In this document: positions 34,320-36,452 of the stretch, in pieces | Position numbering within the stretch: the stretch's first letter is position 1 | Layout of the letters: every line of letters begins with the position of its first letter | The notes under the pieces: generated by a model | Seen by the model: the letters and a program-made list of their open reading frames with translations, nothing else | What the model was told of the DNA's origin: nothing | Databases searched by the model: none | Sequence record: PQ864023.1 | DNA length: 64,000 bases | Source of the DNA: Enterobacter phage vB_Ecl_SABI | Direction: 5' to 3' (one strand) | Program-made: the position numbers and the translations under genes

Positions 34320-36452
34320 TTACTTCGTTGCAGCTTCAATCTGTTTAACCAGATCTTCGCTAACTCCCAGAGCAGCCCAGGATTTCTTGGCTGACTTCTT
34401 AATGAGCAGAGCAGCTTGTGCTACGCCCACAGAAGTTACACCACACTTCAGGCATTCAGCCATTTTAGCTTTTGGCCCAGTACCCTTCACCGGAGAGGTG
34501 AAGGACTGTGTTTTAGGCTGTTTTTTAGCTACTGGTTTAACGTCTTCAAAGCCAGAGACTTTGCTTACCTTAACGGTAGTCTCAGCGGCCTTAGCCGTTT
34601 CTTCTTCGATCAGCTTAACAGCAGCATCGTCGATACCCAGTGCAGACCAACCCTTTTTGGATGCCTTCTTGAAGGCTACCAGGGTTTCCAGACGCGCAGC
34701 AGAAGGCTGAGTACGATACTCTGCCCACAGACGCTGTGCAGTCTGTGCTTTGGTTTCACGTTTCACTTCAACCTCGATAGGTTTAGCTGGCTCTGCTTCA
34801 GCTTTCGCTTCAGGTTCAGCCGGGCTAACCGGTTTCAGTTTATCAGCTTCAATGGCATCAGCCACTGGTACGGTAGGATCCAGTGATGCTTCCGTATCCA
34901 GCGTTTCATGCTCAACCGCCGCAGCCGATACTTCCGGCTGTACCCGGTCTTCTGGTTTAACGTCAGTATAGGTGACGTTAGTACCACGATGACCACCCAC
35001 TTCAACAAGTTGAGTGATCGGCACATGGCGTCCAGCGATAATGTCGTTCAGCAGTGCTTTACCGACCGGGGTACTGGACAGAGAGCCACCATTGTTAACA
35101 ATGTCACGCTCTGCCGTATTCAGTTCAGCCAGGATGTGGTAACCACAAACACGCATTTTATTCGTGTTGTATTCAGGCACAGCAAACACATCCTCTGGAC
35201 GTACTTTAGCTACCACAGTGGCATCACCACTGAATTGGCGTAAGTACGACAGGGAAGCTACGTGCAGACCATTAGAACAGTCCTGACGACGGCTTGGATC
35301 AACCAGACCTGGCTTCATGAATACATAAGAGCCAACTCTCTGTTTGATTTTGCCGGAGTGAACATCGGTAAACAGACCTTTACCCTGGCGGTTAAGCCGC
35401 TTGTAAATGATGATACAACCATCATCTGCAATCGGCAGATCACCATGTTCGATGAATTTCATCAGGTCTTCTACCGAGTGACCACGTTGGTCAATGATAG
35501 CTGACAGACGTTCCACGAAGTTCGTGAAACCAGTGTAGTTCTGGAGCTTCGATGCAGCCTTAAGCTGGTGACCGAGTTTGTGTGCATCCGGGATGATTGC
35601 ACCAGTTTCGGTATGTACCGCAACAATGGTTTCATCTTCCTTCATCGGAGCATGGAACTCAGGATCGCTGGTGTCCTTAGCATTACCCATCAGTTGCTGC
35701 ATACGCTGTTGCGCAGCTTCAACTTTCTGGTCATTACTGAGAGCAAACAGCTTTTCACCCGGTACACTTGGCTTCATTTCCACGTATGCACCTGCACGAT
35801 TCAGAAGCATGGCAGCTACCCTGGCAGACTCGTCATCGGCATTGGTAAGTACCAGGATCGGTTGAGGAGACTCAACCAGATCTTTAGCTTCACGTAAGCC
35901 CAGGCCAGTGATTTCACGTACTGCTTTAATGACTGCAACTTTGTTGTAGTCTTTCGGCAGCTTCTCGATGAAGACAGACTGAGGCACAGGAGCTTCTTCG
36001 CCTTCTGGCTTAGCATCCCAGGCTTCAGTACCTGCCTCATCTTCTGCGTCCACCATCTCTTGCAGAGACTGGGCTACATCAACCGGAGCTTTCCACGGTA
36101 ATTTACCGATTTCCAGCGGGCTGATATGAGCAGCACTTTCATCGACCTTATCGGGCGATTCAGTGTTAACCAGATTGCTGAGGAATTTCTTCGCTACGCG
36201 GAAGAATTTGATAACGCCACCAGTACCTTTCTCAGCGTCTTCGAATTCTTCACGACGTGCAAAGATAGGGGTGATGTCAACCTCAACTGGCAGAGGTGGA
36301 TTTAAAGAGAGAGGCCCACGGGCCTTCTCTACGATAAGGGGCAGACGAGCATCCCCTTGTGGGATAGTGACGGTGGAACCGTCCTCTTTATAGAGAACAG
36401 CCACCTTGCTATCTACTGACAGAGCAATGATAGTGATCAGTTGTTGTTTCAT
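34320..36452 (-). CDS. rIIB: rIIB-like protein containing a ribosomal protein L7/L12 C-terminal domain copy and tandem C-terminal helical repeats, 710 aa
   Basis: Translationally coupled (ATGA) to the GHKL-ATPase rIIA-like gene, in the rII position of N4-like gene order. aa 158-227 [26 protein letters not shown]…AGAYVEMK is near-identical to E. coli Rpl[30 protein letters not shown]…AGAEVEVK. C-terminus has two ~45-aa repeats (…[23 protein letters not shown] / …[23 protein letters not shown]). Confidence 0.6.

Follow-up and report, generated by a model that had tools for sequence, protein, structure and literature searches.

The rII locus is among the oldest genetic loci of molecular biology and, to our knowledge, it still lacks a biochemical mechanism. 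We analysed a 64,000-nucleotide stretch of Enterobacter phage vB_Ecl_SABI (sequence record PQ864023.1; hereafter the window), whose minus strand encodes a rIIB-like protein of 710 amino acids (aa) in an open reading frame (ORF) at 34320..36452, stop codon included. Inside this protein lies a segment resembling the CTD (C-terminal domain) of ribosomal protein bL12 (L7/L12; RplL in E. coli). The locus thus raises three questions: is the segment a genuine bL12 CTD, how did it come to lie in a rIIB-like protein, and might it engage there the same translational GTPases as on the ribosomal stalk?

A bL12 C-terminal domain in a rIIB-like protein

Positions 35772-35981 translate, on the minus strand, to aa 158-227 of the rIIB-like protein (70 aa). 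When the whole protein was compared with Pfam, Ribosomal_L12 (PF00542) matched at 58.7 bits (E 7.1e-16), against a gathering score of 25.9 bits, aligning aa 168-227 with profile positions 9-67 of 67; the 70-aa segment alone scored 64 bits (E 1.7e-17). An AlphaFold2 model of the protein, built with 71 homologs and having a mean predicted local distance difference test score (pLDDT) of 75, forms strand 158-164, helices 171-182 and 186-193, strand 199-205, helix 207-219 and strand 223-228 in this region at pLDDT 72-89. This beta-alpha-alpha-beta-alpha-beta order is the order of elements in the bL12 CTD. Foldseek ranked L7/L12 structures first, and aligned the domain to the E. coli L7/L12 CTD (PDB 1ctf) with a template modelling (TM) score of 0.91, a root-mean-square deviation of 1.2 Å and 47% identity across 70 columns. 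Identity to E. coli RplL is complete at aa 170-179, in TGLGL (182-186) and in EAKDLVES (188-195); in the second half of the domain, where helix alpha6 and the strands have diverged, it falls to 9 of 30 residues. After helix alpha5 and before strand beta2 the phage domain carries a one-residue insertion (ESPQP, against ESA-P in RplL).

The surrounding protein is equally recognizable. Over its full length (aa 1-710) it matches PHROG 2886, 'RIIB lysis inhibitor', at E 3.4e-180, and precomputed annotation of an identical database protein (P0001) lists both PF26926 Phage_T4_rIIB and PF00542, as it does for relatives. We conclude that a full bL12 CTD sits within the rIIB-like protein; the match is far above chance and is not one of low complexity. 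An L7/L12 CTD at this place had been proposed by a sequence-only reading of the window. That reading gave the C terminus of E. coli RplL correctly, the identities that it named (a decamer, TGLGL and EAKDLVES) are real, and the Pfam comparison that it suggested yields a significant match over the whole domain rather than over a short low-complexity stretch.

The EF-G G' domain contacts L12 at V66-V68, K70, L80 and E82 (PMC5887453). All of these residues are identical in the window protein, as V172, A173, V174, K176, L186 and E188; across the wider face, K171, V172, I175, K176, R179, L186, E188, K190 and D191 of the window protein correspond to E. coli K65, V66, I69, K70, R73, L80, E82, K84 and D85. 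Among the phage rIIB copies examined, that of the window lineage is the best preserved. The same face of L12 reportedly also serves EF-Tu, IF2 and RF3, as is said of the work of Diaconu et al. in 2005 and Helgstrand et al. in 2007.

The remainder of a stalk protein is missing. Even with E values of up to 1 admitted, Pfam yielded PF00542 alone on the 710-aa protein, without Ribosomal_L12_N (PF16320), and nearly all full-length bacterial matches carry the two families together. In bL12, the dimer of N-terminal domains (NTDs) is the part that binds uL10. Because the L12 NTD is absent, canonical incorporation into the stalk is unlikely. A stalk protein would also be of ~120 aa and encoded next to rplJ, whereas this domain is internal to a long protein encoded between a rIIA-like gene and a DNA polymerase gene. 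Set beside bacterial bL12, then, the window domain has the same fold and the same alpha4-alpha5 contact residues (47% identity to 1ctf and up to 64% to other RplL proteins), but differs in lacking the N-terminal dimerisation and uL10-binding domain, in its internal position and in its one-residue insertion.

Origin and distribution of the domain

The rIIB-like proteins of Erskinevirinae (Ea9-2, Rexella, Fifi067), Cbunavirus (phiA41, EK8) and Kaypoctavirus (KP8) carry the same domain at the same position, and N4 and G7C hold relics of it. The protein of Erwinia phage Ea9-2 (AHI60108) is the product of the orthologous rIIB-like gene, which lies directly downstream of a rIIA-like gene, and is ~51% identical over aa 1-539; its PF00542 match, at the same position (aa 146-210), reaches 28.1 bits against 58.7 for the better conserved window copy. 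In Pectobacterium phage phiA41 the same gene, with the same architecture and neighbour, encodes a protein ~41% identical overall (ARB10982), which GenBank calls 'ribosomal L7/L12 C-terminal domain protein'. An entry of the nr database, 'MAG: ribosomal protein L7/L12 C-terminal domain protein [Bacteriophage sp.]' (P0002), shares 98% identity with the protein of the window. Both of these entries consist of annotation alone.

Pfam found no L12 match in the rIIB-like proteins of N4 (L003) and G7C (L004). By hhalign, a profile of the phage copies from which N4 had been excluded matched the N4 region with a probability of 97.5% (E 7e-12), and G7C-type sequences alone with 93.5%; a profile of bacterial CTDs matched the N4/G7C region weakly (36.8%). 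The matches to the phage-copy profile therefore indicate that N4 (aa 152-223) and G7C (aa ~149-215) carry degenerate L12 CTD relics, unlike the intact domain of the window protein. The N4 relic has substitutions at factor-contact positions (K70 to H, L80 to S, E82 to Y and K84 to N).

For 128 rIIB-like proteins we built a neighbour-joining tree from the N-terminal region and the core. On it, Fitch parsimony reconstructed the domain as present at the root, with 5 losses that correspond to domain-less clades of 1, 1, 4, 16 and 59 sequences. The nearest domain-less relatives (P0026-29; 65-69% identical) lack both the linker and the domain, and the Klebsiella P184 type is likewise domain-less. Of 21 non-redundant phage copies, 20 have the one-residue insertion; of 114 bacterial RplL proteins, none has it. 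Parsimony on this tree favours an ancestral domain with ~5 losses, and, as far as sequence comparison can tell, the bL12 domain was inserted into Schitoviridae rIIB long ago, was inherited vertically and was lost repeatedly. Bacterial RplL is closer to each phage copy than are the copies of other phage lineages, as would follow from independent divergence of the lineages from an ancestor that evolved slowly.

The single copy without the insertion belongs to a rIIB-like protein, P0098 (domain at aa 121-188). This copy is 53% identical to E. coli and is the most RplL-like of all in the second half of the domain. It may represent a re-acquisition, or gene conversion from host rplL.

The opposite account of the origin, a recent and possibly neutral capture of a host rplL fragment, draws on the DNA. 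A blastn search of 5,426 E. coli genomes found similarity to rplL over 78-82 nucleotides (nt) only, at 78-81%, the best stretch being 79.5% identical over 78 nt. Within the alpha4-alpha5 core (Table 1), the phage and E. coli codons coincide at 16 of the 23 residues in common, where 10.8 would be expected from the phage's own codon usage (p = 0.018). This excess is marginal, and it is not specifically predicted by the model of an ancient origin; the remark in the sequence-only reading that the codons look host-like was not confirmed, and the nucleotide search that it proposed did not support recent enterobacterial capture. The remaining evidence speaks against capture. The other half of the domain differs from E. 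coli rplL at 57 of 90 nt; the closest bacterial proteins (59-64% identical) come from assorted lineages and are RplL of a Burkholderiales type rather than enteric; the inserted residue is common to distant phage copies and foreign to bacterial RplL; the rIIB tree has the domain at its root; and the domain is under purifying selection at a synonymous divergence (pS) of ~0.5. Given the short DNA match, the shared phage indel and the root placement, we reject recent capture as scarcely credible.

Conservation and selection across the domain

Conservation in 20 non-redundant phage copies (E. coli numbering) was 0.90 at V66, 0.90 at I69, 0.95 at K70, 1.0 at R73, 0.85 at G79, 0.90 at L80, 0.80 at E82, 0.90 at A83, 0.85 at D85 and 1.0 at P91; positions in helix alpha6 and the strands were mostly at or below 0.5. 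We also determined the ratio of nonsynonymous to synonymous polymorphism (pN/pS) among 8 genes of the window clade (the window itself, L010-L012 and L023-L026; pS ~0.5). It was 0.16 for helices alpha4-alpha5 and 0.145 for the rIIB core, compared with 0.51 for the rest of the L12 domain and 0.61 for the linker. Since alpha4-alpha5 are constrained nearly as strongly as the core while the rest of the domain is not, selection is specific to the factor-contact face.

L12 C-terminal domains outside the ribosome

The profile of the phage copies matched 13,279 representatives at E <=1e-3 among 1.84 billion proteins. Its top matches (P0241-P0388; for example P0241) are long, non-ribosomal proteins with 2-8 tandem L12 CTDs. 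These arrays occur in fusions with TIR_2 (P0252), with PNP_UDP_1 and pentapeptide repeats (P0325), with LRV/HEAT repeats (P0242, P0248), with fn3, with dockerin/Ig and with Ribosomal_L10 (P0359), and some of the proteins may be immune or conflict proteins. Insertions of L12/ClpS domains have been described in vWA-MoxR conflict systems (Kaur et al. 2020; PMC7159879). Together, the tandem fusions and the vWA-MoxR insertions identify the L12 CTD as a module widely reused off the ribosome, including in immune-looking proteins. One array protein, P0307 (3776 aa, four L12 CTDs), was considered as an N4-type virion RNA polymerase and rejected; the two are unrelated.

Possible functions of the domain

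We tentatively propose that the L12 domain, on its flexible tether, binds translational GTPases off the ribosome as an accessory to rII function. The idea of the sequence-only reading that the domain could sequester these GTPases, or dock onto them, is thus a reasonable hypothesis. It would act as it does on the ribosomal stalk, yet away from the ribosome: the tethered domain would be a low-affinity handle for the G domains of EF-Tu, EF-G, IF2 and RF3, and would in this way keep a rIIA-rIIB counter-defence complex near translation factors or ribosomes loaded with them. Should rIIA-rIIB be oligomeric, the presence of several tethers might raise avidity much as the stalk does. Several observations are consistent with this proposal: the domain is a bL12 CTD by profile, fold and order of elements; the most conserved positions of the phage copies coincide with the published EF-G contacts; purifying selection on alpha4-alpha5 is strong; the domain is tethered by an Ala/Glu/Pro-rich stretch with pLDDT <50 at aa 116-152; its origin in rIIB is ancient; and the tandem L12 CTD fusion proteins, like the vWA-MoxR insertions, provide an off-ribosome precedent.

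Several points weigh against it. At least 5 clades do without the domain. The alpha4-alpha5 helices are also the best-conserved part of bL12 generally, and part of their conservation in phages could hence be fold constraint. The affinity of a single CTD for the factors is weak. Knock-down of N4 rIIA or rIIB by CRISPRi-ART lowered plating only on cells expressing lambda RexAB (PMC11879866). As the contact residues are replaced in N4 and its rII nevertheless works against RexAB, a link to GTPases is not needed for that activity. Finally, ribosomes could not be purified by way of a tagged bL12-domain protein from a different N4-like phage (Mizuno et al. 2019; PMC6375957). The domain is an accessory, lineage-specific add-on and not the core of rII activity: it is missing from whole clades, and N4, with its degenerate copy, still counters RexAB. 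For the same reasons the suggestion of the sequence-only reading that the domain offers a new handle on rII function in general was overstated.

A somewhat unlikely, though serious, alternative is that the domain has been repurposed as a protein-protein module for a partner outside translation (rIIA, a host defence sensor resembling Rex or Tmn, or an immune protein of the host with an L12-CTD array), or that it is a mere folded spacer; the conservation of alpha4-alpha5 would then reflect the fold core or a new partner. The domain does lie within the most variable linker of the protein and has been lost repeatedly, and the retention of the fold without the factor-contact residues in N4 and G7C suggests that the fold is useful without them. 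L12 CTD arrays accompany TIR, PNP_UDP and LRV domains and the domain also occurs in vWA-MoxR conflict systems, while the Tmn defence protein senses T2 RIIB directly (PMC13001434); the fold, moreover, resembles that of the ClpS adaptor (Foldseek probability 1.0, TM ~0.74). However, the residues kept across divergent phage copies match, position for position, those with which bacterial bL12 binds the factors, and a new partner would be expected to move the conserved patch. Nor would a pN/pS of 0.16 on one face be expected of a pure spacer.

It is improbable that the domain instead docks rIIB on the ribosome, at the uL11 NTD or the GTPase-associated centre; there, in competition with the native stalk, it would modulate host translation or shut it down. 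The L12 CTD does touch the uL11 NTD during factor docking (PMC3505967), and one peptide of the bL12-domain protein of phage FSL SP-076 was detected in ribosome fractions, but ribosomes could not be purified through the tagged FSL SP-076 protein (Mizuno et al.; PMC6375957). The absence of a defect upon N4 rII knock-down in Rex-less hosts (PMC11879866) argues against a general takeover of translation, and many lineages do without the domain. Very unlikely, too, is a viral substitute for host bL12 that is built into the stalk as a 'virus-encoded ribosomal protein' or auxiliary gene: Mizuno et al. (2019) do propose that virus-encoded ribosomal proteins can take the place of cellular versions (PMC6375957), but this domain is buried in a 710-aa protein that has no PF16320 domain with which to dimerise and bind uL10.

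Returning to the tethered GTPase-binding module, we consider a broader version of it unlikely, though worth stating. In many N4-like phages the rIIA-rIIB complexes might carry bL12 CTDs on acidic tethers as an off-ribosome 'pseudo-stalk', which would capture EF-Tu, EF-G, IF2, RF3 or membrane-stored LepA, thereby linking host translation to a membrane-proximal counter-defence module; the bacterial arrays fused to TIR or nucleosidase domains would be the host-side counterpart.

Gene context and protein architecture

The rIIB-like protein consists of five parts: an N-terminal domain, a disordered linker, the L12 CTD, the rIIB core and two helical C-terminal repeats (Table 1). The linker ahead of the L12 domain resembles a hinge, is hypervariable in the alignment and is composed largely of four residue types (D4, E7, P5 and A7 among 42 residues). 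Several RIIB families of PHROGs besides the N4-like family 2886 (609, 11221, 3803 and 36818) align to aa ~301-453 of the window protein, within the core and not in the region of the L12 domain. In a Foldseek search of the PDB, the N-terminal domain, the rIIB core and the C-terminal repeats had no solved relative; only the L12 CTD, together with the related ClpS fold, was matched.

The C-terminal region contains an internal repeat (34596-34673 and 34326-34403, minus strand; aa 594-619 and 684-709) with 13 of 26 residues identical (E 8e-7). Each copy lies in a helical unit, disordered spacers lie between, and a 'KKxW.ALG' motif is kept across homologs. The repeats matched no Pfam family. In a close relative of 764 aa (P0024), the linker that follows the rIIB core is enlarged by a further insertion of ~60 residues (…SKVELAFNYIAGIFPTLSKVTYGVDLRWTYVLSSGEIPEF…), at alignment columns ~604-680 of A1. 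Because P0024 carries this further insertion, rIIB-like linkers appear to take up insertions repeatedly.

Table 1. Coordinates of the rIIA-like gene and of the parts of the rIIB-like protein in the window
Feature	Position	Strand	Basis
rIIA-like gene, 824 aa	36449..38923	-	PHROG 2979 RIIA E 1.6e-179; upstream of the rIIB-like gene
Conserved N-terminal domain, aa 1-115	36108..36452	-	Kept in 71/71 aligned homologs; pLDDT ~80-89; pN/pS 0.18
Linker, acidic, Ala/Pro/Glu-rich, predicted disordered, aa 116-157	35982..36107	-	pLDDT <50 for aa 116-152
bL12 C-terminal domain, aa 158-227	35772..35981	-	PF00542; AlphaFold2 fold; Foldseek match to 1ctf
Helices alpha4-alpha5, aa 170-195, GTPase-contact face by homology	35868..35945	-	23/26 residues identical to E. 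coli
rIIB core, aa 240-500, part common to T4-type rIIB	34953..35735	-	RIIB PHROGs; dense invariant columns; pN/pS 0.145
C-terminal helical repeat unit 1, aa 566-624	34581..34757	-	Helices 568-581, 585-598, 609-624
C-terminal helical repeat unit 2, aa 660-710	34323..34475	-	Helices 660-667, 675-688, 699-709

The rIIB-like gene is flanked by the rIIA-like gene and, downstream, by a gene for a family-A DNA polymerase. The stop codon of the rIIA-like gene and the start codon of the rIIB-like gene overlap as ATGA (36449-36452), in the junction sequence '...aaatcATGAaac'. Translational coupling of rIIB to a GHKL-ATPase gene, as the sequence-only reading had described it, thus agrees with the overlap, while the GHKL assignment of the partner is on weaker ground: its signature is faint, with HATPase_c_3 at 22 bits, under the cutoff. 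PADLOC scans of rIIA and rIIB gave no matches, and a hydropathy scan of the two proteins found no transmembrane segment (maximum KD19 1.45). A profile scan of all six-frame ORFs of the window revealed no second L12 domain, and no tRNA genes were found in the window.

By tblastn, rIIB genes are present in 2822 phage records, and the order rIIA then rIIB is common to N4, G7C, KP8, EK8, Rexella and Ea9-2. The closest cultured relatives of the rIIB gene are all Schitoviridae. They are not close at the DNA level: a search of INPHARED phages with the rIIB gene returned no close cultured relative, the sole matches being 74% identical over 238 nt, in Erwinia N4-like phages. The window is that of an N4-like phage (Schitoviridae). 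An ORF of 3623 aa at 57-10928 (plus strand) has the size expected of an N4-type virion RNA polymerase and fits this assignment. The DNA polymerase ORF (31632-34286, minus strand) is listed with a GTG start and 884 aa, whereas its orthologs on related contigs are given as 863 aa. A downstream ATG, inside the opening residues VAFSMFIHERGRIYMRH…, is probably where the gene truly starts.

Relation to known systems

bL12 domains inside large phage polypeptides, homologs of these proteins without the domain, and conserved EF-G/EF-Tu contact residues were reported by Mizuno et al. (2019, Nat Commun 10:752; PMC6375957), whose Table 1 lists the bL12 domain of Ea9-2 AHI60108 (724 aa). The window protein fits this class, having PF00542 within a phage protein some of whose homologs are domain-less. 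It follows that the L12-rIIB fusion is already known in kind and in annotation, and the sequence-only reading had been preceded both by that listing and by the database names of the phiA41 ortholog and of P0002. Our account differs from that of Mizuno et al. in two respects: they did not identify the domain-bearing protein as rIIB-like, and they inferred multiple independent acquisitions, whereas the rIIB copies compared here point to a single origin. In the literature searched we found no paper joining rIIB or rIIB-like with 'L12 C-terminal domain'.

Two further groups of systems invite comparison. The T4-type rIIA/rIIB pair and the anti-RexAB rII module of N4 share with the window a homologous rIIB core and a homologous rIIA partner. 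Other phage L12 CTDs without obvious anchoring to a stalk are those of Ralstonia phages RSB3 and RSJ5, of roseophages DSS3P2, DFL12phi1 and vB_DshP-R7L (gp15), and of a 418-aa protein of Salmonella phages FSL SP-058/076; their carrier proteins and genomic contexts are unlike those of the window, and in roseophage R7L the bL12 gene is separate from a 477-aa rIIB-like gene.

Implications for rII biology

The value of these observations is bounded by the presence of the fusion in the literature and in GenBank annotation since 2017-2019, and by the accessory nature of the domain. What we add is modest: the link to rIIB, a probable single ancient origin of the Schitoviridae copies, selection focused on the contact face, and the previously unrecognised relics in N4 and G7C. 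As the best-preserved copy among those examined, that of the window lineage is the natural choice for experiments. A well-understood binding surface within rIIB allows a cheap and specific question to be put to this old locus: does it bind EF-Tu, EF-G, IF2 or RF3? Were the 'pseudo-stalk' to prove real, the contact between the bL12 CTD and the translational GTPases would be a recurrent point of conflict between phages and their hosts.

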